A stretch of 23,252 bases of DNA, taken from IMG/VR virus record IMGVR_UViG_3300029922_002860; one strand, given 5' to 3'. Below are positions 1 through 19,998 of this stretch, piece by piece. This DNA comes from a virus (lineage: Duplodnaviria > Heunggongvirae > Uroviricota > Caudoviricetes). Position numbers and translations under genes: made by a program. The notes below the pieces were generated by a model. The model saw only the letters and a list, made by a program, of their open reading frames with translations. It had not been told where the DNA came from and did no database searches. Position 1 is the stretch's first letter. Each line of letters begins with the position of its first letter.

Positions 1-4
1 CTGA

Positions 5-172
5 GTTCTGCCGCCCCTCCAAATACGAGGCCAGCTAGAGCCAAGATTCGCGCGGGGATACGGCTCCTGAGTTCTGCCGCCCCTCCAAATACGAGGCCAG
101 CTAGAGGATACGGCTGCGCGTATCCCGAGAGTGCAAGTTCTGCCGCCCCTCCAAATACGAGGCCAGCTAGAG
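5..172 (-). CRISPR. Mini CRISPR array A (3 repeats, 2 complete spacers; probably continues beyond the window start)
   Basis: Identical 36-nt repeats GTTCTGCCGCCCCTCCAAATACGAGGCCAGCTAGAG at 5-40, 71-106 and 137-172, separated by 30-nt spacers. Strand inferred from anti-repeat G-U pairing and from degenerate trailer repeats in the other modules. Confidence 0.93.
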
Positions 173-302
173 GGCACCGTGCAGACTGTTGCTTGCCAAA
201 GAGTAAGAGGGAAGCAGCCCGGTATAAAACTGTCGCCTTGTGGGCGACCCGGGTAGGCTTGGGGTTGGCCCAAGCGTGAAAGGGATGACTCGAAAAGAAC
301 GA
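173..302 (-). ncRNA. tracrRNA/omegaRNA-like scaffold, copy A
   Basis: ~130-nt element repeated four times. Contains an anti-repeat (189-217) complementary to the adjacent repeat, and stems CCCGG/CCGGG, GTCGCC/GGCGAC and GCTTGGG/CCCAAGC that covary between copies. Confidence 0.82.
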
Positions 303-305
303 GAA

Positions 306-335
306 ACACTATCGGCGAAAAGGGACGGGGTTCAA
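306..335 (-). promoter_or_regulatory. Putative sigma70-like promoter of module A
   Basis: Minus strand TTGAAC-N18-TAGTGT. The predicted start falls at about 299-302, where the segment conserved in all four copies begins. Confidence 0.5.
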
Positions 336-340
336 GTCGG

Positions 341-638
341 CAGTTGCTGTCCGGCTTCAATGGAAGGGACCGAAAGGGGCGGTGGAGTTAGCAGACACGT
401 AGGTCGTTCTGCTGCCCCTCCAAATACGAGGTCAGCAAAAGCAACAGATGCAGTTCCTATGACCATGAAGAGTTCTGCTGTCCCTCCAAATACGAGGCCA
501 GCAAAAGGGCAGGATCATGCATCTGCTCGTGGCCTTGTTCTGCTGCCCCTCCAAATACGAGGCCAGCAAAAGCACTGATGCGAAAACCCGTGTGCAACAT
601 CAGTTCTGCTGTCCCACCAAATACGAGGCCAGCAAAAG
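341..638 (-). CRISPR. Mini CRISPR array B (4 good repeats plus 1 heavily degenerate trailer repeat, 4 spacers)
   Basis: Repeats at 406-441, 472-507, 537-572 and 603-638 (consensus GTTCTGCTGYCCCWCCAAATACGAGGCCAGCAAAAG). A degenerate 36-mer at 341-376 has about 19/36 identity. Spacers are 29, 30, 29 and 30 nt. Confidence 0.92.
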
Positions 639-766
639 GGCACCGTGCGGACTGTTGCTTGCCAAAGAGTAAGAGGGAAGCAGCCTGGTATAAAACTGTC
701 ACCTTACGGTGACCCAGGTGGGCTTGGGGTTGGCCCAAGCGTGAAAGGGATGTGTTGAAAGAACGA
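639..766 (-). ncRNA. tracrRNA/omegaRNA-like scaffold, copy B
   Basis: Near-identical to copy A; anti-repeat at 655-683; stems CCTGG/CCAGG and GTCACC/GGTGAC are compensatory variants of those in copy A. Confidence 0.82.
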
Positions 767-769
767 GAA

Positions 770-799
770 ACACTATCGGCGGAAAGGGACGGGATTCAA
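770..799 (-). promoter_or_regulatory. Putative sigma70-like promoter of module B
   Basis: Minus strand TTGAAT-N18-TAGTGT, same position relative to the scaffold as in copy A. Confidence 0.5.
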
Positions 800-810
800 G
801 GCGGCTCTTG

Positions 811-1242
811 TCGTTGCTGCCCCACCAAATGCGAGGCCAGCAAAAGGTAGCCATCGAATTCGGTGAGATGTTTCATGTTCTGCTGTCCATCCAAATACGA
901 GGTCAGCAAAAGGAGTGGCGAGAAGCTTTCTTCATGGTGGTTGTTCTGCCGCCCCTCCAAATACGAGGCCAGCAAAAGGTTGGTGAGCGCACGGGCCAGC
1001 GCGGCATCGTTCTGCTGTCCCACCAAATACGAGGCCAGCAAAAGCGGCACGGCCGGCGAGAAACGATTGTTTAAGTTCTGCTGTCCCACCAAATACGAGG
1101 CCAGCAAAAGAACGGGCAACGGTCCGGGCAATCAGGCTCCGTTCTGCTGTCCCACCAAATACGAGGCCAGCAAAAGCGCCAAGACCGCCTGCCGCAACCG
1201 TGAGCTGTTCTGCTGTCCCACCAAATACGAGGCCAGCAAAAG
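811..1242 (-). CRISPR. Mini CRISPR array C (7 repeats, 6 spacers)
   Basis: Repeats at 811-846 (degenerate trailer), 877-912, 943-978, 1009-1044, 1075-1110, 1141-1176 and 1207-1242. All spacers are 30 nt and unique. Confidence 0.95.
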
Positions 1243-1371
1243 GGCACCGTGCAGACTATTGCTTGCCAAAGAGTAAGAGGGAAGCAGCCTGGTATAAAAC
1301 TGTCACCTTACGGTGACCCAGGTAGGCTCAGGGTTTACCTGAGCGTGAAAGGGATGACTCGAAAAGAACGG
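1243..1371 (-). ncRNA. tracrRNA/omegaRNA-like scaffold, copy C
   Basis: Third copy; anti-repeat at 1259-1287; stem GCTCAGG/CCTGAGC replaces GCTTGGG/CCCAAGC (compensatory). Confidence 0.82.
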
Positions 1372-1373
1372 GA

Positions 1374-1403
1374 TCACTATCGGCGGAAAGGTGCGGGATT
1401 CAA
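1374..1403 (-). promoter_or_regulatory. Putative promoter of module C
   Basis: Minus strand TTGAAT-N18-TAGTGA; weaker -10 than in copies A and B. Confidence 0.4.
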
Positions 1404-1414
1404 GACGGCTCTTG

Positions 1415-1648
1415 TCGTTACCGTGCCTCCAAATACGAGGCCAGCAAAAGGCCCTTCCCCGATTCGATGAACATTATCGGTTCTGCTGCCCATCCAAATA
1501 CGAGGCCAGCAAAAGGGACATTCAGCCACACGAAAGAGGCCCTAGTGTTCTGCTGCCCCTCCAAATACGAGGCCAGCAAAAGGCAGCCCTGTTCAAGTAC
1601 TTTTCGGTTTTAGTTCTGCTGTCCCACCAAATACGAGGCCAGCAAAAG
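1415..1648 (-). CRISPR. Mini CRISPR array D (4 repeats, 3 spacers)
   Basis: Repeats at 1415-1450 (degenerate trailer), 1480-1515, 1547-1582 and 1613-1648. Spacers are 29, 31 and 30 nt. Confidence 0.93.
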
Positions 1649-1778
1649 GGGCGCCGTGCAGAGTGTTGCTTGCCAAAGAGTAAGAGGGAAGCAGCCCGGT
1701 ATAAAACTGTCGCCTTGTGGGCGACCCGGGTGGGCTCAGGGTTTACCTGAGCGTGAAAGGGATGTGTTGAAAGAACGA
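1649..1778 (-). ncRNA. tracrRNA/omegaRNA-like scaffold, copy D (gene-proximal)
   Basis: Fourth copy, starting 9 nt after the stop codon of the 872-aa gene; anti-repeat at 1666-1694; lacks the upstream promoter segment present in A-C. Confidence 0.82.
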
Positions 1779-1787
1779 ATATCTAAA

Positions 1788-4406
1788 CTACGCGCACTGT
1801 TTGCGCACGGAGATGACTGGAAAGGTAACGGTAGTACGCTCGCCGGCACCGGCAAGTGTCTTCTCAGCGAGATCCTTGAACTTGGCGTCGTACCAGCTCA
1901 GCAGGATGGCCCACGCGGCATTGCTTGCGTAACACGAGGACGCATCGAGCCAATTCTCCCCAGAGGCAACCTTCGCCAGGTCCACGATCTTGTTTTTCTT
2001 CCCGCGCGTAACCGCCGTGTGGATCACGGCATCGCTCTCGGCGACAGTTTCGTCGTGGAACGGCACGCCAAAAGGCAGCGACTCCGAGGACCCGTCTCGC
2101 CACCCTCCGTTCAGGAGCGTCGCTGACTTTGCGGAGATCGAATATGCGCTGACCCCGATCTTCGCCAAAGCCGAGGGCAGGTAGCCTTGGGGCGTCAGCC
2201 TGCCGCCTAACTGGGCTAGCGTATAGAAATCCCGGGCCGGATGGCGGACGCTCCCCTTGCCGAAGATCGGGCCACCGCCGCCTATCACAACATGCCCTAC
2301 CCCGTTCGCCGCGCAGATGTCGGCAATCGACCGGGCAATCTTACGATAAAAACGCTTCCCCTCATTGGTGCGGTAAACGCCGAAATCCTTCATTTGCGCC
2401 CGGTTGACTTCCATGGGGATGAACCCCTTTGAAAGCCTCGACCCGCGCCCCTCGAACTCCTGGTCAAGAGAGTCTGCGTTGAAGTGGACGATCATGTCTT
2501 CGCGGCCGATGGTGTTCTTGAGCACGCGGCGGTTCCCGTTTACCGAAACCTGATTGGGATGCAGCGCCTCCTTGTGGGTTTCGCGAACAACGCGCTGGAA
2601 GGCGTAGGGTTCCCATCCGGTGGGTGCTTCACGATCTACGTTAACCTTCCTGAACATGGTCAAGGTCGCGACGCGGAGCCCGCCTGGGGATGCGTGTACG
2701 ACTGCGAGCAACTCTCCGTTCTGGACCGGCCGGAAACGCCCTGGCTTGAGATCCTGCTTGGCTTCCCGAGCCGCCGCTCTTTGAGCATACAGAGCCTTGC
2801 TCGACTCCAACGAGGCTTCCGCAATCTCGGGCATCACGGTAGCGGAGAAGCATCCAAACACCCGCTTTGCATCCCTGTCTTCTATGGTCAGCCTCAGCGC
2901 CTGAGCCTTGAAGAAAAGTTTGCGGCCTTCGGGGTCTCCCGGCATCGGAAGCGTGGCGTCCGGACGGAACTGCGTGGCCCCGTTTTTAACGTCGATTGCC
3001 TGTGGCAGCCGTGTCGCACGGTTTCCGGGTATGTTGCCACGAATGCGTGCCTCTACGAGGGCGGGGACGCTCATTTGCGCCGGTGCCTCGACTGGACGGT
3101 GCGCAGGGATATAGAGCGACACGTAGATGCAGTTGCTTGGTGCTCCCACCTGCGCCGCTTCCGCCAGCTCCCAACCGTACCGGTTATTGGGAAGCAGCGG
3201 GCTGAGTCCGGACGTGTCGGGAACCGACGGTATCGAGACAGGCCGCATAGCGGCGCAAAAGGCTCTTACCGGGCCAGTCACAAAGTCCTTGATGGCCTTC
3301 AGGGGAATATCCTTTTTGTCGGCTGCAATGATCCTGAGCCACCCCGCATGCTCCTCGGTGTCGCCAGGCTCCAACAGGTCGAGCTGCTCAGGGGGGAGGA
3401 GTCCGAATGCCGCCTGATGGAGGGCGAGAATGCGGCTTAGGACACCGCGGTCTCGCGCCAAGTCTTTCGGCTTGCTGCCTGCCGATGACAGGCGACGGAA
3501 GCGGTCGCTGGGGATGAACGGCGTCGGATCAGACTCAGGAAGGAGCGCGACGAATCGGGCAAGGATCGCAGGGTATTCATCCGCGCTTGCAAGGAACTCG
3601 GGCTCCTTCGGGTCAATTGGTTGCCACGCCGTGATGCCGGGACGAAGAAGAACTGCCCGCCACTGGCATGCGGAGATGACCTTTGAGGGAACCTTCTCGT
3701 CCCGAAGTTCCCGGCGCAGAACCGTGAAATAGCGGCTCGCCGAGTCCTGGGCGGCCTGGGTCATGAAGAATCGCTGGAATGGGTTAAAGAACGCGCCATG
3801 CTCCTTCATTAATCCCTGGACCGTGGCGGCGTGCTCCCTTGCCAGCGCACTTGCGCCCTCCTTGTTGGAAAGAAACGATTTGGCCGCGCCGGCAACTTGA
3901 ACGGACATCGTGCTTAGGATCGTCCCCAGATCAATGGCCCCGAATACAGTCTTGAACCACTCTTCAGTGATGGATGGGGGCTTGATGCCGTAGTGGTCAA
4001 GGACCAGCTTGTACGCGGTGCCGCCGCCAGTCTTCCTTGCTTCAGGGAAGACATAGCCACGCAGCATGATGTAGGCGTTCGATGACTTGAGTATGTCGTC
4101 CCACTTGCGACCGGCAATCCCTCCGTCCCCCGATAGGACGACATCCTTCCAGACCTGGGTATCGAGAATCGCCTGGGGAACCACCGAGGGATTCAGGAGG
4201 AGATAGATTGCCAGCCGGTCATCGCCCTCCACCGTGGCCATTGAGCAAAACGTCTCCAGCAGCGCCTTTGCAGTGGCGCTGAAGGTGCGGATGTAGGAGG
4301 TGAGCGTTCCGTATCCGTCTGGGGAAATCGGCGTCACCCGGCCCTTGAAGGCGGTCGAGTAGATGCGCCCGCAGTTGAGTTGGATTGGGGAAAGTTTATC
4401 GTTCAT
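1788..4406 (-). CDS. TnpB/Cas12-like (type V-like) effector, 872 aa, with apparently inactivated RuvC
   Basis: Long ORF abutting the array modules. N-terminal strand-helix (STAFKGRVTP...LTSYIRTF) resembles the WED/REC start of TnpB/Cas12. The C-terminal third has RuvC-like segments in the expected order: LLAVVHASPG (RuvC-I), RKIARSIADICAANGVGHVVIGGG (RuvC-II), ALAKIGVSAYSISAKSAT, and YASNAAWAILL (RuvC-III). Recognised by eye only. Confidence 0.75.
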   Translation of the reverse strand: MNDKLSPIQLNCGRIYSTAFKGRVTPISPDGYGTLTSYIRTFSATAKALLETFCSMATVEGDDRLAIYLLLNPSVVPQAILDTQVWKDVVLSGDGGIAGRKWDDILKSSNAYIMLRGYVFPEARKTGGGTAYKLVLDHYGIKPPSITEEWFKTVFGAIDLGTILSTMSVQVAGAAKSFLSNKEGASALAREHAATVQGLMKEHGAFFNPFQRFFMTQAAQDSASRYFTVLRRELRDEKVPSKVISACQWRAVLLRPGITAWQPIDPKEPEFLASADEYPAILARFVALLPESDPTPFIPSDRFRRLSSAGSKPKDLARDRGVLSRILALHQAAFGLLPPEQLDLLEPGDTEEHAGWLRIIAADKKDIPLKAIKDFVTGPVRAFCAAMRPVSIPSVPDTSGLSPLLPNNRYGWELAEAAQVGAPSNCIYVSLYIPAHRPVEAPAQMSVPALVEARIRGNIPGNRATRLPQAIDVKNGATQFRPDATLPMPGDPEGRKLFFKAQALRLTIEDRDAKRVFGCFSATVMPEIAEASLESSKALYAQRAAAREAKQDLKPGRFRPVQNGELLAVVHASPGGLRVATLTMFRKVNVDREAPTGWEPYAFQRVVRETHKEALHPNQVSVNGNRRVLKNTIGREDMIVHFNADSLDQEFEGRGSRLSKGFIPMEVNRAQMKDFGVYRTNEGKRFYRKIARSIADICAANGVGHVVIGGGGPIFGKGSVRHPARDFYTLAQLGGRLTPQGYLPSALAKIGVSAYSISAKSATLLNGGWRDGSSESLPFGVPFHDETVAESDAVIHTAVTRGKKNKIVDLAKVASGENWLDASSCYASNAAWAILLSWYDAKFKDLAEKTLAGAGERTTVTFPVISVRKQCA

Positions 4407-4432
4407 TGGATAGTTGAAGATGGGGCAAGGAG

Positions 4433-5245
4433 TCAGGCTGCGACAAAGTGTTGGAGTTCGTTCTCGGCCGTGCGCACGCGTTCAAGCTCTTCGCCTGCAA
4501 GGGCGGCCCTGATGCAACGAAGCCCTGCCTGGAGTAATGCCTCACGCGACCGGCCTTTCTCGGGCTTGGCGAGGTGCTCGAATTTGACCGCCGGATCGTT
4601 AGGCCCCCGGCGCTCAAAGTTCACGAGCCGCGTTGTAAATGCGACCGTGCCGGGGCGGTCCTTGCGGAGGCCCATCGTCAGCGCAAACAGCAGCGGGGCG
4701 CGGAGGCCCATTCGACTAAGCGCCCTGTAATGGCTCGCGAGGTAATCGAGTTCCGGTTGAAGCTCCTTTACGGCTACGACAACATCGTCCATCGAGAACC
4801 GCCTCAGTTTCTTCTCCGGGAACTTGACGTAGACCAGGAAGAGTTTTGCGACAGCCGCCCGCATGTCGCCATGCGTAAAACCATCCGCCTCCAAGAGTGA
4901 GCTGTCGCTCACGCGCGAACGCACGTCCACTGCGATCCTGCTTTCCGGGCTGAGGCCAAAGGCCACCTTCATCGTGACCGTGCGTCCGGCCTTTATGATG
5001 GCCATGAGTCGATGTTGCCCGTCAACGAGGACCCCGCGGCTATCGAACGCGACGCCATCCGCCAAGTTTGCCCAACGCCCTGCAAGGATCTCCTCCGTGA
5101 AGAAAGTGATGTCCGTCTCCTTTGTGTCACGGTTCTGCTTGTTCTGCCTTAGCATGGTGAGCGCCAAGTCCGGGCTCACGGCCAACTCAAATTCCACCAG
5201 AATCTTGCTGTGCAGGTTCTCGGTAAAGACTCGGGTGGCGTTCAT
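4433..5245 (-). CDS. ParB-like N-terminal (DGQHR) domain protein, 270 aa
   Basis: VSPDLALTMLRQNKQNR...GRW...GVAFDSRGVLVDGQHRLMAIIKAGRTV pattern typical of phage ParB-like proteins, with an intact GxxR. ATGA overlap with the upstream paralogue. Confidence 0.8.
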   Translation of the reverse strand: MNATRVFTENLHSKILVEFELAVSPDLALTMLRQNKQNRDTKETDITFFTEEILAGRWANLADGVAFDSRGVLVDGQHRLMAIIKAGRTVTMKVAFGLSPESRIAVDVRSRVSDSSLLEADGFTHGDMRAAVAKLFLVYVKFPEKKLRRFSMDDVVVAVKELQPELDYLASHYRALSRMGLRAPLLFALTMGLRKDRPGTVAFTTRLVNFERRGPNDPAVKFEHLAKPEKGRSREALLQAGLRCIRAALAGEELERVRTAENELQHFVAA

Positions 5246-6033
5246 GTGACGGCCTCCACGGTCTGAAGTTCAATACCTGCGCGAGCTAGCAGGTGCAGGC
5301 GGACGCTCTCCGGCTTATCGGAGTCCTCGATGCCGCAATAGGCGGCGACTACAGAAAGAGCGCTTTCAAAGCGCTCGCGGCCGCTCAGCTTGTGATAGTC
5401 CTCCCCCATGCGCCGGCGATAAGCGAGCACCCTTCGACTCGCCTCGGAGCGATCAAACAACTCGGCCAAAAACTGGCGGACCTTCTCTTTGTAACCATGC
5501 CCAACGAGGGCGAGCACGACGGCGGCCTTTGCGGCATTGCTCCAATAGGGGCCGCTGGCAAGCGTTCCTTTGACGGCCGTCACTTCGTCTACAGCCTCGT
5601 GGAAGATCGCGTGTGCGGCCTCCACGTTGAGAGGGTTCGAGGAGTTCTCGCCTTTGACGTAGAGGATAACTGCATTCAGTACCGGAGCCTCCACCCTCGC
5701 CGTATTGACCCTGCACACGGCACGGAGGACATCCTTCGAGTTGCGAGGCCGCCCGCGGCCGTACTTGTTTAGCGTGTCCGGATCTGCATCGCGGGTGACC
5801 TTCACCTCAACGGTGCTTTGTGATTCGCCGATGGCCGCCAAGAGTTCGCCTCCAGAGATGAGGCGCCCGAGCTTGTCGATGACGACTCCCTGGTGGGTCG
5901 GTTGCCAGCGCCCGTTGCGAATCAAATCGCTATAGTTCTTAATCGAACGCCTGTTGAGTCGCAACCCAGCCGGAAGTTTTGAAAGCAGCTGTTCCGCCGC
6001 TAATGGGTCGATGCTTTGTGTCTTAAGAGCCAT
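5242..6033 (-). CDS. ParB-like paralogue with degenerate motif, 263 aa
   Basis: IDPLAAEQLL...LNRRSIKNYSDLIRNGRWQPTHQGVVIDKLGRLISGGELLAAI aligns with the neighbour, but DGQHRL is replaced by SGGELL. Confidence 0.72.
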   Translation of the reverse strand: MALKTQSIDPLAAEQLLSKLPAGLRLNRRSIKNYSDLIRNGRWQPTHQGVVIDKLGRLISGGELLAAIGESQSTVEVKVTRDADPDTLNKYGRGRPRNSKDVLRAVCRVNTARVEAPVLNAVILYVKGENSSNPLNVEAAHAIFHEAVDEVTAVKGTLASGPYWSNAAKAAVVLALVGHGYKEKVRQFLAELFDRSEASRRVLAYRRRMGEDYHKLSGRERFESALSVVAAYCGIEDSDKPESVRLHLLARAGIELQTVEAVT

Positions 6034-6042
6034 AATATAGAA

Positions 6043-6053
6043 TTTGTATGGGA
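6043..6053 (-). promoter_or_regulatory. CCCATAC-type motif upstream of the ParB-ParB-Cas12-like operon (second copy CCCATAAT at about 6098-6106)
   Basis: Minus strand TCCCATACAAAT about 12 nt before ATG 6033; same motif family as upstream of many other genes. Confidence 0.45.
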
Positions 6054-6199
6054 TAATCGCCTAATAGACCGAAAGTTCAATCAAGAGATTGGTAACAGAT
6101 TATGGGTAAGCGGGATGTAGGTGAAGATAAGCGGAGCAATAATGCCTATTTGTAGGTGTTTGATGCAATTCCACGGTCTGCTCAAGCAGCAATCGCTAC

Positions 6200-7159
6200 T
6201 CAGCGGTAGATGGCGTTCAGGATGTCCGCCAGGCGCATTCCTGCCTCGGCGATCTGGCGGGACATGACCGGCGCCTCGCGCTCTGCATAACCCTCCGGCA
6301 GTCGGATCATGATCTTGTGGAGACGGAGCGCGGGATGCCCCTGCCCCCTTGAAACATCCGCGCGTAAAAACTCTATTCCTTCGTAAGCCTGCGTCCCTAA
6401 GACAACGCTCTCAGAAGCCCAGACTGTTGGCCAATGGTGAAAGTCGCCGCCCGTTTCCATGTGAGCGGCCCCGTATTGGCGCATTGCCGTTGCCGCCAGA
6501 GTCCGGTAATCCGTGCCGCTAGAAATCTTCTTCAGCAGGACGGTGTCGAAATACTCGTGCAACTCCTCTGATTTGGTGAAGAAGAGCGCGTTCCCGCCGG
6601 CGTCACCTGGAGAGACTGCCGTAACTTCGCTTGGCGACAGAAGCCGCGGCCTCTCGGGGTCGCTCAGGTCGAAATACCCTGTGATGCAGTGAAGAGGTTG
6701 CGAAATGTCTCCGACACAGTGAATCAAGACACGGGCCGCCTCAGATTGTGAAAGACCAGTTTGGCGCCCGTCGAGAGTTGCTACTGCAAGCGCGATGGCA
6801 TGCGCCACATCGTTCTTGGACGCGTAGAGTTGCGCGTTCGGGTTGTACGAAGTTTCGCCGACAGGGACGTTAACAAAATGCCACTTCGTCGAGCCGGGAA
6901 AGCGGTGGATAAAATCCTTGGCTTCCGCGTCACCTTTCATTTCGCCGCGGTTCTGGCCTGCTGCGCGCACCTCATCGAGCCATGTGGATGCCGATACCAT
7001 GTCGGTTGTCCCCAGGGCCTTTGTGATGCCCGCGCCAGCCTCCGGAGTCAGGTGCTCCTGTGCGATCAACGCGATGGCCCGATGCCCCTCGGCGCCGAAG
7101 CCGAACGCGTTTACGGTCACTGCTAAGGCGAGAAGGATCGAGGTTACGGAATGTCTCAT
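6200..7159 (-). CDS. S1/P1 nuclease family protein with signal peptide (start revised to ATG 7159, 319 aa)
   Basis: MRHSVTSILLALAVTVNAFG signal-like N-terminus, then FGAEGH, STWLDEVR, WHFVN, IHCVGDISQPLH and LHEYFD zinc-ligand motifs of the S1/P1 family. Confidence 0.88.
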   Translation of the reverse strand: MRHSVTSILLALAVTVNAFGFGAEGHRAIALIAQEHLTPEAGAGITKALGTTDMVSASTWLDEVRAAGQNRGEMKGDAEAKDFIHRFPGSTKWHFVNVPVGETSYNPNAQLYASKNDVAHAIALAVATLDGRQTGLSQSEAARVLIHCVGDISQPLHCITGYFDLSDPERPRLLSPSEVTAVSPGDAGGNALFFTKSEELHEYFDTVLLKKISSGTDYRTLAATAMRQYGAAHMETGGDFHHWPTVWASESVVLGTQAYEGIEFLRADVSRGQGHPALRLHKIMIRLPEGYAEREAPVMSRQIAEAGMRLADILNAIYR

Positions 7160-7172
7160 GGGTTGAAGATGG

Positions 7173-8141
7173 TCACGCGAAGGTAAGCTCCCCCTGCCTT
7201 GGTCGCGGTAGGGGCGGCAGAACTTGGGGGGCAGGAGGCGGAATTTCGGGGGCATGGGCTTCGACCTTGGGTCGCACGACCGCATCACGCCCGAAATCCT
7301 CCGCAAACTGGCTCCATATCGAGGCGGCATCGAGGCAGTTGAGTTGCTCCAGTCGTTCGAGGACCTTGGGAAGATCGTTCCCGGCCTGCGGCTTCAACCC
7401 CGCGATGAGGTTCGGGCGAATCAACCTGAAGTTCAGGGCCATCTCAGTCGCCGCTCGCTCACGGGGCCAATTCTTCTTATTGGCCACGAGGTCCACCAGT
7501 TGCTCGTCATCCGGCTCCCCGGAAAGCAAGCTCACGGCTGTCACTGGGCCGATCCCCTCAATGCCAGGAGTGTTGTCGGTCACATCGCCCACCAACGAGA
7601 GGTAGCGGTCCATCTGGGAAGGAGGCACTCCGAAGTCCTCCTTTACCGTTGCTGCATCGCAGCGCTTCCAGCCCCCTGTTATGGGGATGAGCCACGTGAC
7701 GTTGTCCCCTACGACCTGGGAGTAATCCTTGTCGTGGGTCGCGATCAGCACTTCCACCCCAGCCCGACCCTTTGCGACCGTTGCGAGGCTCATTAGCAAA
7801 TCGTCGCACTCCTGCCCTTCCTGGTGGACGTACTCAGCTCCAGAGTCCCTAATGAAGGACTCCACGACCGGGATCTGCTGGGCAAGCTCGGGGGCTTTGG
7901 GCTTCCTGAGCGCCTTGTACTCGGGGTAGAACCCGCGTCGGAAATCGCTCCCTCCGTCGAGGCCGAAGATTACCCGGTTCGGCTCAGTAAAACGAATGAG
8001 GTTCGCGAGCATCGTGGCGCTCTTGGCCACCGCGTTTGTAGGGAAGCCCGAGCATCGCCGGATCGTCATGCCCTTGAGGGCTGTGACGTGATAGGCGCGG
8101 TGGACTAGGTTGCTCCAATCAACTAAGAGTATGCGGTTCAC
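7173..8141 (-). CDS. 5'-3' exonuclease / flap endonuclease (Pol I N-terminal-like); start revised to GTG 8141, 322 aa
   Basis: LLVDWSNLVHRAYH, FGLDGGSDFRRGFYPEYKALR, ECDDLL, THDKDY, LVGDVTDNTPGIEGIGPVTA (H3TH). GTG follows the conserved upstream motif at 8145-8160. Confidence 0.92.
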   Translation of the reverse strand: MNRILLVDWSNLVHRAYHVTALKGMTIRRCSGFPTNAVAKSATMLANLIRFTEPNRVIFGLDGGSDFRRGFYPEYKALRKPKAPELAQQIPVVESFIRDSGAEYVHQEGQECDDLLMSLATVAKGRAGVEVLIATHDKDYSQVVGDNVTWLIPITGGWKRCDAATVKEDFGVPPSQMDRYLSLVGDVTDNTPGIEGIGPVTAVSLLSGEPDDEQLVDLVANKKNWPRERAATEMALNFRLIRPNLIAGLKPQAGNDLPKVLERLEQLNCLDAASIWSQFAEDFGRDAVVRPKVEAHAPEIPPPAPQVLPPLPRPRQGELTFA

Positions 8142-8144
8142 TTC

Positions 8145-8160
8145 CCTATAAGTATGGGGA
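8145..8160 (-). promoter_or_regulatory. CCCCATACTTATAGG promoter-like motif
   Basis: CATACT hexamer 9 nt upstream of GTG 8141. Confidence 0.6.
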
Positions 8161-8178
8161 GTGCTCGCGCTACGATCT

Positions 8179-8952
8179 TCAGAGTGCCCTGCGGGTTTTC
8201 CACCACCGTTGGAAGTCCGACGACACAAGAAGCATGCCGACCGCCAGGGGCAGGCTCAGGAAGGCCCACCCCCACCGAACCCTCCAGTTCGGGAAATTGA
8301 GCATCACGGGTTCGTTCCGCAGGACAAAACGGGTTCCGACAAGCCCCAATTTTTGACAGGCTGCGAACTGCGCGTCGTTCGCATTGCGGAGGTTGGGTCG
8401 CAGAGGGATAATCCTCTCGCCAGGGACATCGTCCGTGGCATTCATCGAGTATGACTTCCCGTCGATTCGGACGGAGGTCCACACGTGCCCCTCACGGTCC
8501 CCGACCTTCGACCAGAGGTGAGCCTTGACGGAGGCATCGAGTCCGAGAGCCCGCAGTAGCGAGAAAAGCACTATGGTCTGGGCTTTGCAGTCGCCCCTCC
8601 AATAGGGCCAACCCTCCAGCGCGGCTTTCTGGCGCAATTCGTCTATCGTGCGAACTTTGCCAGCCGTGAGCCATGTCTGCTCGTCCAATGCATACTGGAC
8701 ATGCACGAGCATTGTTGTGAATGCGAGGGCCGCACGTTGTTTTGGGTCAACGGTAGCATCTGCGATGGCGGCGGCCCATGCGAGAATGTCTGGGTCCTTT
8801 GGGTCGGCTTTAGCCTCGATGAGTTGTGCCGCAAACTCTGTTGTACCTGGCTTTTCCAGGACCTCCATGTTTGGCGGCGGCCCCATCGCAAGGAAAACGA
8901 GGGCAGGCGCGAGAGCTAACCCCGCGTAAAGGAACACAAATGCCCTCCTCAT
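8179..8952 (-). CDS. Membrane-anchored transglutaminase-like protein (start revised to ATG 8952, 257 aa)
   Basis: Hydrophobic N- and C-terminal segments; RGDCKAQT...LLRALG and GHVWTSV match the Cys/His motifs of transglutaminase-like proteins. ATGA overlap with the kinase stop codon. Confidence 0.7.
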   Translation of the reverse strand: MRRAFVFLYAGLALAPALVFLAMGPPPNMEVLEKPGTTEFAAQLIEAKADPKDPDILAWAAAIADATVDPKQRAALAFTTMLVHVQYALDEQTWLTAGKVRTIDELRQKAALEGWPYWRGDCKAQTIVLFSLLRALGLDASVKAHLWSKVGDREGHVWTSVRIDGKSYSMNATDDVPGERIIPLRPNLRNANDAQFAACQKLGLVGTRFVLRNEPVMLNFPNWRVRWGWAFLSLPLAVGMLLVSSDFQRWWKTRRAL

Positions 8953-14197: not shown

Positions 14198-14250
14198 TTC
14201 CAGCCGGTATGGCCCCAGAACCATGCGTTCTGGAGGAAGACCCGGCCGGT

Positions 14251-14268
14251 CCCCCCATAATTTATACC
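14251..14268 (+). promoter_or_regulatory. CCCCCCATAATTTATACC promoter-like motif (divergent partner)
   Basis: CATAAT hexamer 7 nt before ATG 14269 on the plus strand; motif orientation follows gene orientation. Confidence 0.6.
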
Positions 14269-16422
14269 ATGGCAACCAAGGAAATCGCTGATTTTGGTCA
14301 GAAGATCGGTGGCGCTCGAAAAGACCTCCGCGGCAACGTCCGCCTAGAAGACATCCGGGAAATGACCATGGAGGAGATGCTGGAGCTTGTGACGAAGAAT
14401 GTCGTCTGGCCAACGCCCGACTATGAGGAGATGGTCGCGACCCAAGGTTACACGCAGAAGGCGGCCCTCATGGTGAAATCGTTGAGGGACTGTTTCCCAG
14501 CGGCGCCAAAGTGCAGCGCCACTGCAACCGATGCGGACAGGACCCGCGCCTCGGAAATGTACGCCACCCTCGTGAACGCTGCGAAGGCTGTTGCTGCCCG
14601 TGGCAAAACCGAGGCGGAACTCGCGAAGGCGTTCAACGACGCCCCCGAGGCGAAAGAGTGGCTCGCGGACTTCTCGTCGGCACCGAACCCCTCGACCTAC
14701 CGTGGCTACGGCCGCGACAACTATGTCCCCGCCAAGCGCTACAACGAGGCAATCGAGGCCGCGTTTGGGAGGTCGTGCCTCAGCGATAGTCATTTCATGA
14801 TCGGCAGCTTCCGGACGTTCGCAGCGGGAAGCCTCGATTCCACCTCGAACCGGATTCTTAAGAAGAACCCGCAGTGGCCAGCCGGCACCTCACAGGCCGA
14901 AGCCTTTTTGCGCAGGTCGCAGATCGGGGTGATTCCTATTGGAACCGACGGCTTCCGTATCGGAAGGAGCGGCACGCTACCGGTTCCGCACACCTACTCC
15001 CACCATGAGTTGAGCCGCGTGGGCTTTGATGACGCCACCCTGGCGAAGCTCTTCAAGACCAAGGAAGAGGCCGATGCGGCAATGCTTGTGGTGGCCGAGG
15101 CCCACTACGCAACCAAGCGCTCCGGGGCCAAAGCCAAGCGCGAGGCCCTGCTCCAGAGGGCTAAAGGCGCAGTCGTTGTCGGCGACGGCCTGGTGGACAG
15201 GGTCGGTAAGAATTGGCGTGACGGGGCCGATGTCGAGGGGGAGGATTACCTTCGCGTATTCGGACTTCGCGGGGGCGAGTTCGGCCTCTGGGTCAATCAA
15301 GAGGAGCGCCAGATGGTCCTCAACAAGGGCTTCGACTCGTTCCACGACCTGGCGGACGTGATGGCCTTGGAGCCTTCGCACACCTCGCTCGGAGGCACCC
15401 TCTCGATTGCGTTCGGAGCGCGCGGGAATGGAGGCTGGGCCGCCGCCCATTACGAGCCGGGACGCCGCGTTTTCAACCTCACCAAGCCCTCGGGAGAGGG
15501 ATGTTTCTGCCACGAATGGTTCCATGCGTTGGACCATCACCTCGGTCGTCGGGCAACCGACCTGGGCCTCGTCGAGCGAATCCGCGACCCCGAGCACGCG
15601 CCCTACCTGACGAATGTCACCCTCAAGAAGAAGTCGCCGGAAGCTGTGGAGTCGCCGGAGGCTACCTACTTGCGCGAGGTGCATGACGCAGTGGACTCCA
15701 TTCCGGTCTCGAACGATCCGAAGACCAAGGCGGTCCTGCTGACTGAGGCAAAGAAGCGGTACGAGGAAAACGTGCGCTGGCTGATGATTCAAGTCGCCGC
15801 GGCGGAGAACTTCCTGGACCGGACCACGTGGATTCCCCAAGACAAGCGCGCCGAGCTGTCCGGGCTGATCTCCCGCATGCGCAGCCCAGACCCCGAGCGG
15901 AAGCAGGAAGATTTCCACAGCGCCGTAGGATCTTTGGTCGTAGCCCCCGAGTTGGTCCGGTTCCCGAACAGGCACGTGCTCTCGTACTACCAGACCGAGA
16001 TGCTAAAGGCCGCAGTCAGCGTGCGGGACTCGGAGCAACTGCCCGACGGTTGGACAGGGGAGGCTGTTAAGCGCAAGACCAACTATGCATCAGCGGTCGC
16101 GAAACTCGATAAGCAGCGGTCGTCCCCCTACTACTCGAAGCAACACGAGATGTTCGCGCGCGTAGGCGAGGCTGTCATTGCCGACGAACTCGTCGCTCGC
16201 GGACGCGCAAACTACTTTCTTGTCGCGGGAGCTTCCGGGGAAGCCTACCCGCAGGCGGAAGAGCGTGATGGTTTCCGGACGAAATTCATGCCGCTCCTAA
16301 AGGGCCTCGCCGGACATCTTCCGAAGGTTGTTTCCGAAGTGGGCCGGCGCGAGTGCCCTCCCCTCCCCCAGCCCCGTGCAGCAGCTGTTGCCTTTCAGGG
16401 CGAACAGATGACCCTTATCTAA
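14269..16422 (+). CDS. Large polyvalent protein-associated (LPD1-type) zincin metallopeptidase-like protein (start revised to 14269, 717 aa)
   Basis: DFGQKIGGARKD N-terminus; GGEFGLWVNQEER...LSIAFGARG...AAAHYEP...NLTK...CHEWFHALDH (HExxH); YYSKQHEMFARVGEA, typical of LPD1-containing proteins of phages and conjugative elements; ends in QMTLI. Confidence 0.82.
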   Translation: MATKEIADFGQKIGGARKDLRGNVRLEDIREMTMEEMLELVTKNVVWPTPDYEEMVATQGYTQKAALMVKSLRDCFPAAPKCSATATDADRTRASEMYATLVNAAKAVAARGKTEAELAKAFNDAPEAKEWLADFSSAPNPSTYRGYGRDNYVPAKRYNEAIEAAFGRSCLSDSHFMIGSFRTFAAGSLDSTSNRILKKNPQWPAGTSQAEAFLRRSQIGVIPIGTDGFRIGRSGTLPVPHTYSHHELSRVGFDDATLAKLFKTKEEADAAMLVVAEAHYATKRSGAKAKREALLQRAKGAVVVGDGLVDRVGKNWRDGADVEGEDYLRVFGLRGGEFGLWVNQEERQMVLNKGFDSFHDLADVMALEPSHTSLGGTLSIAFGARGNGGWAAAHYEPGRRVFNLTKPSGEGCFCHEWFHALDHHLGRRATDLGLVERIRDPEHAPYLTNVTLKKKSPEAVESPEATYLREVHDAVDSIPVSNDPKTKAVLLTEAKKRYEENVRWLMIQVAAAENFLDRTTWIPQDKRAELSGLISRMRSPDPERKQEDFHSAVGSLVVAPELVRFPNRHVLSYYQTEMLKAAVSVRDSEQLPDGWTGEAVKRKTNYASAVAKLDKQRSSPYYSKQHEMFARVGEAVIADELVARGRANYFLVAGASGEAYPQAEERDGFRTKFMPLLKGLAGHLPKVVSEVGRRECPPLPQPRAAAVAFQGEQMTLI

Positions 16423-18906: not shown

Positions 18907-19998
18907 TTAGGATGAATCCACGAGGAAGTTGCGTTCCCGCGAACGGTCTCCGTGTCGCGCATCTCGGAGGCCGGCGAACTCCTTGGCGACAAATTTCCCG
19001 ACGCAAACGGGGAATTCCGCCAGCGCAAACTTGGCAGCTATCCGAGCGACGAACCCCTCCAGCGGGTTTCCGTCCAACTCCCGTCGGTAGATTCCCCGTG
19101 CAAGCTTCTCATCCCACAGTCCCCGATAAAGCACAGGGACAACCGTGAGGCCAAGCAGGCTGCACCATTCCAGGGTCTCGTCCCAGCTCAGGCACTCGTT
19201 CCGATCATTCCAGACCGAGTGAGCGAAGAAATAGGTCGGCAGGCGGTACTTGATGGTGTGCGTCTCGAACATGTTCTCGCCGCAAACCCTCCACCCTTTG
19301 GGGATCTGCCAACCCCACGATGCATGGAAGTTCCGGACCCAGTTCTGAGCGTCGCTGTGTCGGCCGTCTACCGCGCGCGCATGAAGGTAATCCGTGTAAC
19401 AGGTGGTCTGCTCCCCATCGAGCTTCGCCGAGAGGACGATCTGCGCACCACGAAACCGGTCGATATTCGGCATGAATTCATCGTCCTCGGTCGCTCCTTC
19501 GGACCAAGGGAGGTGAGAGGTGCGCGGGTGCTTGACCCAGTCAGTAAATCCCAGGAGGGCGTCGCCGGCGCGGAGCACGGCCTGGACGGATTCGTCCATG
19601 AAGAGCGGCCCCTTTGCTCGCTGGCCGTTGCTTAGGTAAGGGTTCCCCCACTTGTCGTACCGTTGGTCGCTGTAGAGATCCATTGGCAGGGCGATCTCCT
19701 CGATCCCCGCCTTTTCCCGGATCTCCTCGCAGCTGATTAGGGTCGCCTCCGCCTTCAGGTGGCACGACTCCATTGACCCGTTGTCGCACAGTGTCGCGCC
19801 GTTCGAGAGGAAGTAGCCGCCCACTTCCTCTGGGTGGATGAATAGGCGGCGCTCGACGATGTGGTGAGCGTCCAAGCGCCATCCTTCGCCTTCCTTGCGC
19901 CCACAGATCACGCAACAACCGTCGCGCTTAAGCACGCCAGCACGAAACGAGTCCCTGTCGAGCAGGCGCCGGGCGATTGGTTTTCGTGAGGCAGGCAT
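18907..19998 (-). CDS. HNH domain-RNA ligase fusion, 363 aa
   Basis: N-terminal CCVICG...LDAHHI...SNGATLC...CH (HNH-like, Zn-binding); C-terminal KHPRTSHLPWS, KLDGE (nucleotidyltransferase motif I), GENM, EGFV and KFV. Confidence 0.85.
   Translation of the reverse strand: MPASRKPIARRLLDRDSFRAGVLKRDGCCVICGRKEGEGWRLDAHHIVERRLFIHPEEVGGYFLSNGATLCDNGSMESCHLKAEATLISCEEIREKAGIEEIALPMDLYSDQRYDKWGNPYLSNGQRAKGPLFMDESVQAVLRAGDALLGFTDWVKHPRTSHLPWSEGATEDDEFMPNIDRFRGAQIVLSAKLDGEQTTCYTDYLHARAVDGRHSDAQNWVRNFHASWGWQIPKGWRVCGENMFETHTIKYRLPTYFFAHSVWNDRNECLSWDETLEWCSLLGLTVVPVLYRGLWDEKLARGIYRRELDGNPLEGFVARIAAKFALAEFPVCVGKFVAKEFAGLRDARHGDRSRERNFLVDSS

Follow-up and report, generated by a model that had tools for sequence, protein, structure and literature searches.

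Type V CRISPR effectors with an inactive RuvC nuclease can interfere by binding DNA alone, which has been shown for V-C and V-M and is predicted for V-O, V-P and Cas12b3 (PMC12669027). Recruitment of a partner by a dead Cas12 is likewise established, for V-K and for dCas12f-sigmaE (PMC13472631), and loss of the catalytic triad is itself known in V-K and Cas12b3. A nuclease-free RNA-guided DNA binder of phage and parasitic bacteria, TIGR-TasA, is reported to be operonic with a ParB-like gene and adjoined by tandem guide arrays (PMC12045711). Here we analyse a locus in a 23-kb stretch of DNA (23,252 nt; IMG/VR virus record IMGVR_UViG_3300029922_002860), which we call the window and whose low-coordinate 6 kb encode a Cas12-fold effector with a replaced RuvC triad (P0001), two ParB-like proteins (P0002 and P0003) and four modules that each join a structured RNA to a mini CRISPR array. 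We hold with moderate confidence that this is a new type V-like CRISPR system, in which the effector is a dead binder, the scaffold and mini-array RNAs are its guides, and a ParB-like heterodimer acts downstream.

An earlier note on this DNA, made from its letters alone, had proposed a ParB-like/ParB-like/872-residue gene cluster followed by four scaffold and mini-array units, and all of these are present on the minus strand. The three open reading frames (ORFs) are co-oriented, in the gene order 263, 270 and 872 residues, and the modules follow them. The features are listed below from the first gene onwards; L numbers denote other loci, which are compared with the window further on.

5242–6033, minus strand: P0003, a degenerate ParB-like paralogue of 263 residues, first gene of the operon (phrog_5931; L002 and L142 have orthologues at this place)
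4433–5245, minus strand: P0002, a ParB/Srx-like protein of 270 residues with DGQHR at residues 75–79 (phrog_5931, fold matches, orthologues)
1788–4406, minus strand: P0001, the Cas12-fold effector of 872 residues, with the RuvC triad replaced (H571, G709, A827) and without a CxxC zinc finger
1649–1780, minus strand: module 1, scaffold (covariance-model match at 1681–1780, 96 bits; fold of the single module; covariation)
1415–1648, minus strand: module 1, mini-array of four repeats, the last degenerate, and three spacers
1243–1414, minus strand: module 2, 5' segment, scaffold and anti-repeat (covariance-model match at 1274–1372, 97 bits; repeat families D3–D5)
811–1242, minus strand: module 2, mini-array of seven repeats, the last degenerate, and six spacers
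639–810, minus strand: module 3, 5' segment, scaffold and anti-repeat (covariance-model match at 670–768, 93.5 bits)
343–638, minus strand: module 3, mini-array of four repeats at 406–638 and, by eye, a degenerate terminal repeat at about 343–377
173–342, minus strand: module 4, 5' segment, scaffold and anti-repeat (covariance-model match at 204–303, 101 bits)
1–172, minus strand: module 4, mini-array of at least three repeats (137–172, 71–106 and 5–40), continuing beyond the window edge

The earlier note had taken the 872-residue protein for a nuclease-dead relative of Cas12 and TnpB, and both parts of that claim hold. The AlphaFold2 model of P0001, built on a 26-sequence alignment, has a predicted local distance difference test score (pLDDT) of 87.7 and a predicted template modelling score of 0.75. 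Every significant structural match is a Cas12 or a TnpB: Foldseek against the PDB gave 48 matches at E ≤ 1e-3, all 48 of them Cas12 proteins, led by Cas12b (6.7e-10) and followed by Cas12X2, Cas12g, Cas12m, Cas12h, Cas12i, CasX, Cas12f, Cas12o and Cas12k, while the matches among AlphaFold DB clusters were TnpB and Cas12f-TNB proteins. As modelled, P0001 has the bilobed Cas12/TnpB fold with a C-terminal RuvC-like RNase H domain, the strands and helices of its C-terminal half succeeding one another in RNase H order.

At the RuvC I, II and III sites, the positions of D, E and D, P0001 carries H571 (in LLAVVHASPGG), G709 (in HVVIGGGG) and A827 (in YASNAAW). The corresponding columns of the 26-sequence alignment hold H, Q, C or L (with one D), G, A or V, and A, P, S, T, V, R or L, respectively; a full D-E-D triad occurs in none of the 26 sequences, and the C-terminal half contains no conserved acidic residue. 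An ancient loss shared by the whole family is not a pseudogene artefact, and with the three catalytic residues gone across that family P0001 is unable to cut by its RuvC domain. We infer that it binds DNA without cutting. The CxxC...CxxC zinc finger between RuvC II and III is also missing, with no CxxC pair in residues 710–825, and P0001 does not match the Pfam family Cas12f1-like_TNB.

Searches by sequence found few relatives. P0001 gave nothing significant in Pfam, NCBIfam, PHROGs or a phmmer search of the PDB, its single sub-threshold Pfam match being baeRF (E 0.006), and neither phmmer nor a profile of the 26 sequences, run against all PDB chains, returned a Cas12 at E up to 10. A word-indexed protein search yielded one homologue only, and HMMER, run exhaustively over 1.84 billion cluster representatives, yielded 38 relatives; the cluster records of the 10 that we examined were all unnamed or labelled 'hypothetical protein'. 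The family is metagenome-only. Neither GenBank phages (megablast and tblastn) nor PLSDB plasmids (tblastn) contained a match, and no relative was found in IMG/VR. Judged by its modelled fold, P0001 is a member of the Cas12/TnpB superfamily that could be placed in none of the structurally characterised subtypes.

Each module consists of a structured RNA of about 130 nt with an anti-repeat, followed by a mini CRISPR array. The repeat is 36 nt long and reads CTTTTGCTGGCCTCGTATTTGGTGGGACAGCAGAAC on the minus strand; its 18 copies form four blocks 3' of the genes and on the same strand, at a spacing of 65–67 nt, and the spacers between them are unique and 29–31 nt long. A conserved scaffold stands 5' of each block (93–101 bits by the covariance model), that of module 1 beginning about 8 nt past the P0001 stop codon. 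Its parts are hairpin 1, a hairpin 2 set within an outer stem with a U-rich loop, the two-part anti-repeat and a linker of 15–17 nt. The layout is not due to chance, because the same arrangement of scaffold and array recurs in other metagenome loci.

Covariation supports both the scaffold structure and its pairing with the repeat. We aligned 10 modules from two loci, the window and L002, from the scaffold through the first repeat, and obtained a consensus structure of hairpin 1, hairpin 2 and two helices between the parts of the anti-repeat and the two halves, 3' and 5', of the repeat that follows it. In this structure 94.8% of cells are paired, compared with 31–44% when the partners are slid by 1–3 columns; eight pairs, including pairs in both anti-repeat:repeat helices, carry compensatory changes on both sides; and none of 500 shuffles reached the observed covariation score. 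The anti-repeat helices themselves (97–106/204–213 and 155–163/184–192 in alignment A3) are 90–93% paired, with two-sided changes between the window and L002. The scaffold is therefore of the trans-activating CRISPR RNA (tracrRNA) type, with an anti-repeat that is complementary to the repeat and changes in compensation with it, and L012 and L143 have the same layout. Within the window, hairpin 1 alternates between GCTCAGG/CCTGAGC and GCTTGGG/CCCAAGC, and the outer stem of hairpin 2 between CCCGG/CCGGG and CCTGG/CCAGG.

One module folded alone takes the same shape and leaves the spacer single-stranded at the 3' end. On this structure each module supplies its first spacer with a natural single-guide RNA, the guide lying 3' of the repeat as in type V; the later repeat–spacer units are presumably served by the scaffold RNA in trans. 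In every complete array the degenerate repeat is at the gene-distal end, and since a degenerate repeat usually marks the leader-distal end, this suggests that arrays and genes are transcribed in one direction.

Outside the related loci the modules could not be traced. The repeat pattern matched nothing in 185,579 GTDB species genomes or in IMG/VR, and a loose hairpin-1 pattern gave chance matches only, none of which, among the matches listed, was left after a flanking-motif filter. Rfam and tRNA scans of the window had no matches. Scans with the covariance model were negative for L001, L003, L007, L009, L010, L142, L143 and genome G001; the model is too narrow, as L010 and L143 carry divergent scaffold-like sequences that are visible by eye.

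With so many scaffold copies around a dead Cas12, the locus could conceivably be a counter-defence decoy, in which the dead Cas12 and the numerous tracrRNA and repeat copies would disable a host type V system, whether by soaking up its CRISPR RNA (crRNA) or tracrRNA or by shielding DNA, and would not serve programmable targeting on behalf of the element. Phages are reported to encode RNA anti-CRISPRs made of repeats and single-guide mimics, and an anti-CRISPR role has been proposed for a RuvC-inactive phage Cas9 (PMC12669027). A 26%-identity homologue of P0001, moreover, lies on a 349-kb contig among at least five AcrVA2-like paralogues (PF26125) and a HipA_C gene (L007:4138–22103), a region that looks like a counter-defence island. 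We nevertheless consider a decoy very improbable, since the arrays hold at least 14 unique spacers and end in degenerate repeats like working arrays; scaffold, repeat and effector co-diverge between lineages; no host array with the window repeat was found in the 185,579 species genomes or in IMG/VR; and the ParB-like pair would be left unexplained.

The description of the two small proteins as ParB-like, also made in the earlier note, stands for P0002 by fold and motif and for P0003 by common family membership, but not by Pfam, where neither protein has a match that reaches threshold. Both fall in the functionally uncharacterised family phrog_5931 (E 4e-36 for P0002 and 1.3e-16 for P0003), and BLASTP detects no similarity between them. 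P0002 has further weak matches to the ParB family phrog_1033 and to the DGQHR family TIGR03187. Its AlphaFold2 model (pLDDT 89.6) matches ParB-CDP, Noc, KorB, pNOB8 ParB-N, VirB and Srx, weakly (E 2e-3 to 3e-2) but in a uniform list. The top 20 in the PDB are all ParB, Noc, KorB or pNOB8 ParB-N (E 2.5e-2 and up, probability up to 0.97), with Srx and PadC ranked lower, and the matches among Swiss-Prot models, weak as well, are nearly all ParB, VirB or Spo0J (best E 2.2e-3). By these weak but consistent matches the P0002 model has the fold of the ParB N-terminal domain. We take DGQHR to be a DndB/DUF262-type signature, and read the motif (DGQQR in L002) as probably standing in place of the GERRxR box of the ParB cytidine triphosphatase (CTPase); P0003 has GGELL where P0002 has DGQHR.

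Modelled as a complex, P0002 and P0003 scored 0.74, against 0.00 for the best of three controls, the mark applied being reached by 51 of 78 solved complexes and by 2 of 108 mismatched pairs. Between runs, at least 97% of the contacts coincide, the pLDDT of the partner is at least 86, and the modelled interface runs from N-domain to N-domain around the DGQHR region. The model thus supports a heterodimer of the two proteins; the pass may reflect likeness to solved ParB N-domain dimers rather than this particular pair.

What such a heterodimer would do bears on a second alternative, that it supplies a nuclease in trans. ParB/Srx-fold domains include nucleases as well as NTPases (the ParBc, DndB and DUF262 families), so that the dead effector might locate a target which the DGQHR protein, with its degenerate partner, nicks or cleaves, as a cutting defence or a weapon between elements and not as a silencer. 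The best fold matches of P0002, all of them weak, are to CTP-binding ParB, Noc and KorB and not to nucleases, which appear only at low rank (SspE and GmrSD/BrxU), and the histidine of the motif is not conserved, the L002 orthologue having DGQQR. In its favour, four lineages keep the pair in a tight operon with the effector, and the non-cutting Cas12m, which is accompanied by a separate Cas3, offers a precedent (PMC10910872). Weighing these, we regard cutting in trans as rather unlikely.

The earlier note had suggested testing for co-occurrence of the ParB pair and multi-module arrays at homologous loci, and we find that the pair and the modules of scaffold and mini-array both accompany the effector in independent lineages. 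By pairwise identities the close clade comprises six lineages, and the operon of pair and effector is found in four: the window; L002/L014/L015; L011/L012/L013; and L142. Between lineages each of the three operon proteins is 40–51% identical; orthologues of P0002 are 49–51% identical in the four lineages, and those of P0003, which occupy the corresponding place in L002 and L142, 46–51%. L142 is a contig of an NCBI metagenome-assembled genome that ends within the effector gene, the array region lying outside it.

Scaffold and mini-array modules are likewise found in four lineages, in numbers from one to seven and either upstream or downstream of the genes. L002 and L014 have seven scaffolds downstream, six of the seven with arrays, and L012 has a single module upstream of the operon. 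L143, of a lineage 64% identical to the sigma-linked lineage described below, has a single divergent scaffold with a mini-array of five repeats (3067–3480), on the strand opposite to the effector, convergent with it and 1 kb downstream; its repeats are homologous to those of the window. Across the window, L002/L014, L012 and L143 the repeats are homologous yet lineage-specific, each array lying beside its effector. Just upstream of the operon in L014 is an IS605-type TnpB (548 residues, Cas12f1-like_TNB) with a resolvase (6526–8780), so that an active TnpB relative adjoins the dead Cas12-like system.

In the sigma-linked lineage, a sister whose effector is 45% identical to P0001, a sigma-70 family gene stands in the place of the pair, 309 nt upstream of the dead-Cas12 gene (L003:1573–2268, and the P0006 locus). 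Its regions 3 and 4 score above the Pfam cut-offs.

The locus is found in peat. Eighteen DNA runs labelled peat metagenome hold 76–88% of the sampled locus words, six metatranscriptome runs contain parts of the locus, and contigs from four peat/permafrost metatranscriptome runs span arrays, scaffolds and all three genes at 99–100% identity. One metatranscriptome contig joins position 665 to position 1275 with eight base differences, skipping 609 nt, which is exactly one module; we conclude that a strain with one module fewer exists. The arrays of L013 and L011 have one internal spacer more than that of L012, and contigs of three samples carry one and the same L002-type array.

Two adjacent spacers of the window (847–942) resemble gene starts by eye, one beginning ATGAAACATCTCACC and the other containing CCACCATGAAGAAAGC, which would fit targeting of translation-start or promoter regions. 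Such spacers, and the sigma-70 gene in the sister lineage, would suit a third alternative, in which the system regulates genes or tethers DNA for the benefit of the element, by repressing or activating promoters of the host or the element, in the manner of TldR or dCas12f-sigmaE, or by attaching the element to selected DNA sites for segregation, with the ParB-like pair as a partition-type adaptor. The position of the sigma-70 gene, 309 nt upstream of the effector, mirrors dCas12f-sigmaE systems (PMC13472631); the L002-type array did not differ between contigs of three samples; and proteins of the ParB family act in both partition and silencing, KorB, VirB and Noc being among the fold matches of P0002. 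However, neither the 23-kb window nor any fetched locus contains a match to a spacer, a domain scan of the window ORFs showed no ParA-type ATPase adjoining the operon, and arrays differ from sample to sample by entire spacers or modules. We therefore think this alternative improbable.

The reading that we prefer, a dead binder that brings in a ParB-like heterodimer, would work as follows. Transcription of the cassettes from the minus strand would yield a tracrRNA-like scaffold, whose 3' two-part anti-repeat would pair with the next repeat; as the RuvC site is gone, guide processing must fall to another enzyme. P0001 would act as an RNA-guided DNA binder that has lost RuvC cutting, and the complex of effector and guide on a spacer-matched site would recruit or load the P0002/P0003 heterodimer. 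The heterodimer would provide the downstream activity, most likely nucleotide-switched clamping and spreading that silences the target, or alternatively nicking. The role of the whole would be one of silencing or recruiting. Its most specific form is a possible but tentative one: a programmable loader, in which the ribonucleoprotein of the dead Cas12, with natural single-guide and array-derived RNAs as guides, marks selected DNA sites and there nucleates a heterodimeric, NTP-dependent clamp of ParB/Srx type that spreads, silencing or handling the target replicon. If true, this loader would be the first CRISPR-type system with ParB-like DNA clamping as its output, and the sister of a sigma-factor-linked lineage that may activate transcription.

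Several observations weigh against the preferred reading. The sister lineage (P0006/L003 and P0008/L143) is without the ParB-like pair, which is therefore not obligatory for the effector family, and homologues at 24–29% identity have no arrays nearby. One of these, at 27% identity, has a structured RNA directly past its stop codon (L010:5425–5650; z = -3.8) that, like the scaffold, has a GTTCTTT start and the motifs of hairpins 1 and 2 but neither repeats nor an array; it may represent a single-guide, omega-RNA-like state of the family. Clamping by P0002 through CTP would be an analogy, the protein having DGQHR instead of GERRxR. As the earlier note had said of cas1/2/4 and tns genes, no Cas1, Cas2, Cas4 or Tns domain is present in the 17 larger ORFs scanned of the window; no adaptation gene that would account for spacer acquisition is among these ORFs. 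No protospacer was found for 24 spacers (14 from the window and 10 from L014 and L012) in the window, all fetched loci, GenBank phages or PLSDB plasmids, where matches were at chance level only (E 0.01 or worse), and three 22-nt spacer seeds had no match in IMG/VR.

Expression raises further points of the same kind. Positions 1–6300 contain no sigma-70 consensus promoter, a TTGAAY-N18-TAGTGW candidate scoring under the threshold of the scan. The metatranscriptome contigs attest presence in RNA libraries only, and not strand, ends, level or processing, and DNA carry-over is possible. In all four modules hairpin 2 is followed by AGUUUUAU and is terminator-like, so that some transcripts may end ahead of the anti-repeat, giving a shorter scaffold species. 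We rejected a mere intrinsic terminator between leader and array as the whole story for hairpin 2, since the U-tract lies within the outer stem CCYGG/CCRGG and that stem shows compensatory changes between module copies. Overall, the interpretation put forward in the earlier note is supported, all of the checks on it that were run having come out in its favour.

Among the other gene products of the window are an S1/P1 nuclease, a 5'–3' exonuclease, a histidine kinase, an ankyrin protein, an RNA ligase, a ribonucleotide reductase and a protein with an LPD1 polyvalent-protein domain. This mobile-element or phage-like gene set suggests a large mobile element as the carrier; the scanned window ORFs include no structural or conjugation gene that would decide between a phage and a non-phage element. 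The LPD1 protein (14209–16422, 737 residues) also has a segment in common with very large phage proteins (phrog_616, E 1e-36), and is of a type typical of proteins that enter with phage or conjugative DNA. Weak matches to HNH endonucleases fall in the N-terminal region of the RNA ligase (18907–19998; phrog_24030, E 4e-103).

How, then, does the locus compare with described systems? By sequence, P0001 has no detectable similarity to the subtypes with solved structures (V-A to V-K, V-M, V-O, CasX, CasPhi, Cas12X, Cas12h and others), and we found no paper or database family that describes the P0001 family, the ParB-like pairing or the tandem scaffold–array cassettes. The earlier note had not recognised the combination as a described subtype, and it indeed fits none that we found, by sequence or by architecture. 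We rate the system as new at the subtype level within type V, with Cas12b3, V-P, V-Q and unnamed catalogue entries (UAS modules and V-U clades) lying outside the sequence comparison. As an inferred natural DNA binder of 872 residues with its own single-guide design, P0001 could serve as a chassis for CRISPR interference or recruitment.

The nearest fold is that of Cas12b (V-B), the best Foldseek match of P0001, which also has an inactivated variant with a mini-array, Cas12b3 (PMC12669027). In layout the locus resembles V-K, where Cas12k has an inactive RuvC, a long tracrRNA lies between the gene and a short array, and partners are recruited to the RNA-guided site. Unlike the CRISPR-associated transposons of V-K, it is without tnsB, tnsC and tniQ domains, both in the window ORFs and in L011, L012, L014 and L142. 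Cas12m (V-M) and Cas12c (V-C) protect by binding DNA and not by cleavage (PMC11013384; PMC12669027), as the system proposed here would. They differ in that their RuvC site is kept for crRNA processing and no tracrRNA is needed (in part from PMC12669027), and no sequence similarity of P0001 to either was found, Cas12m coming about tenth in the Foldseek ranking.

TldR and dCas12f-sigmaE are likewise nuclease-dead derivatives of TnpB or Cas12 with a partner or promoter, and here too a sister lineage is sigma-linked; the scaffold-like RNA of L010, which has no repeats, resembles their single omega-type guides. They differ in their small TnpB/Cas12f size and in their single chimeric guides, mostly without arrays (PMC13472631): the solved dCas12f chain has 346 residues, compared with 872 for P0001, and the present locus has true repeat–spacer arrays with an anti-repeat. 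Guide organisation takes three forms within one protein family: a repeat-free scaffold, one scaffold joined to an array, and a tandem series of up to seven scaffold–array cassettes.

TIGR-TasA differs in the unrelated Nop-domain fold of Tas, in its guide architecture and in having one ParB-like gene rather than an active and degenerate pair. The pairing with ParB-like proteins would thus have arisen independently with an unrelated effector, which suggests a general and testable functional logic. Dead Cas12 and TnpB proteins have taken on new functions in transposition (V-K), repression (V-M, V-C and TldR) and transcription activation (dCas12f-sigmaE), and to these the locus would add an RNA-guided binder joined to a heterodimer of ParB/Srx type.

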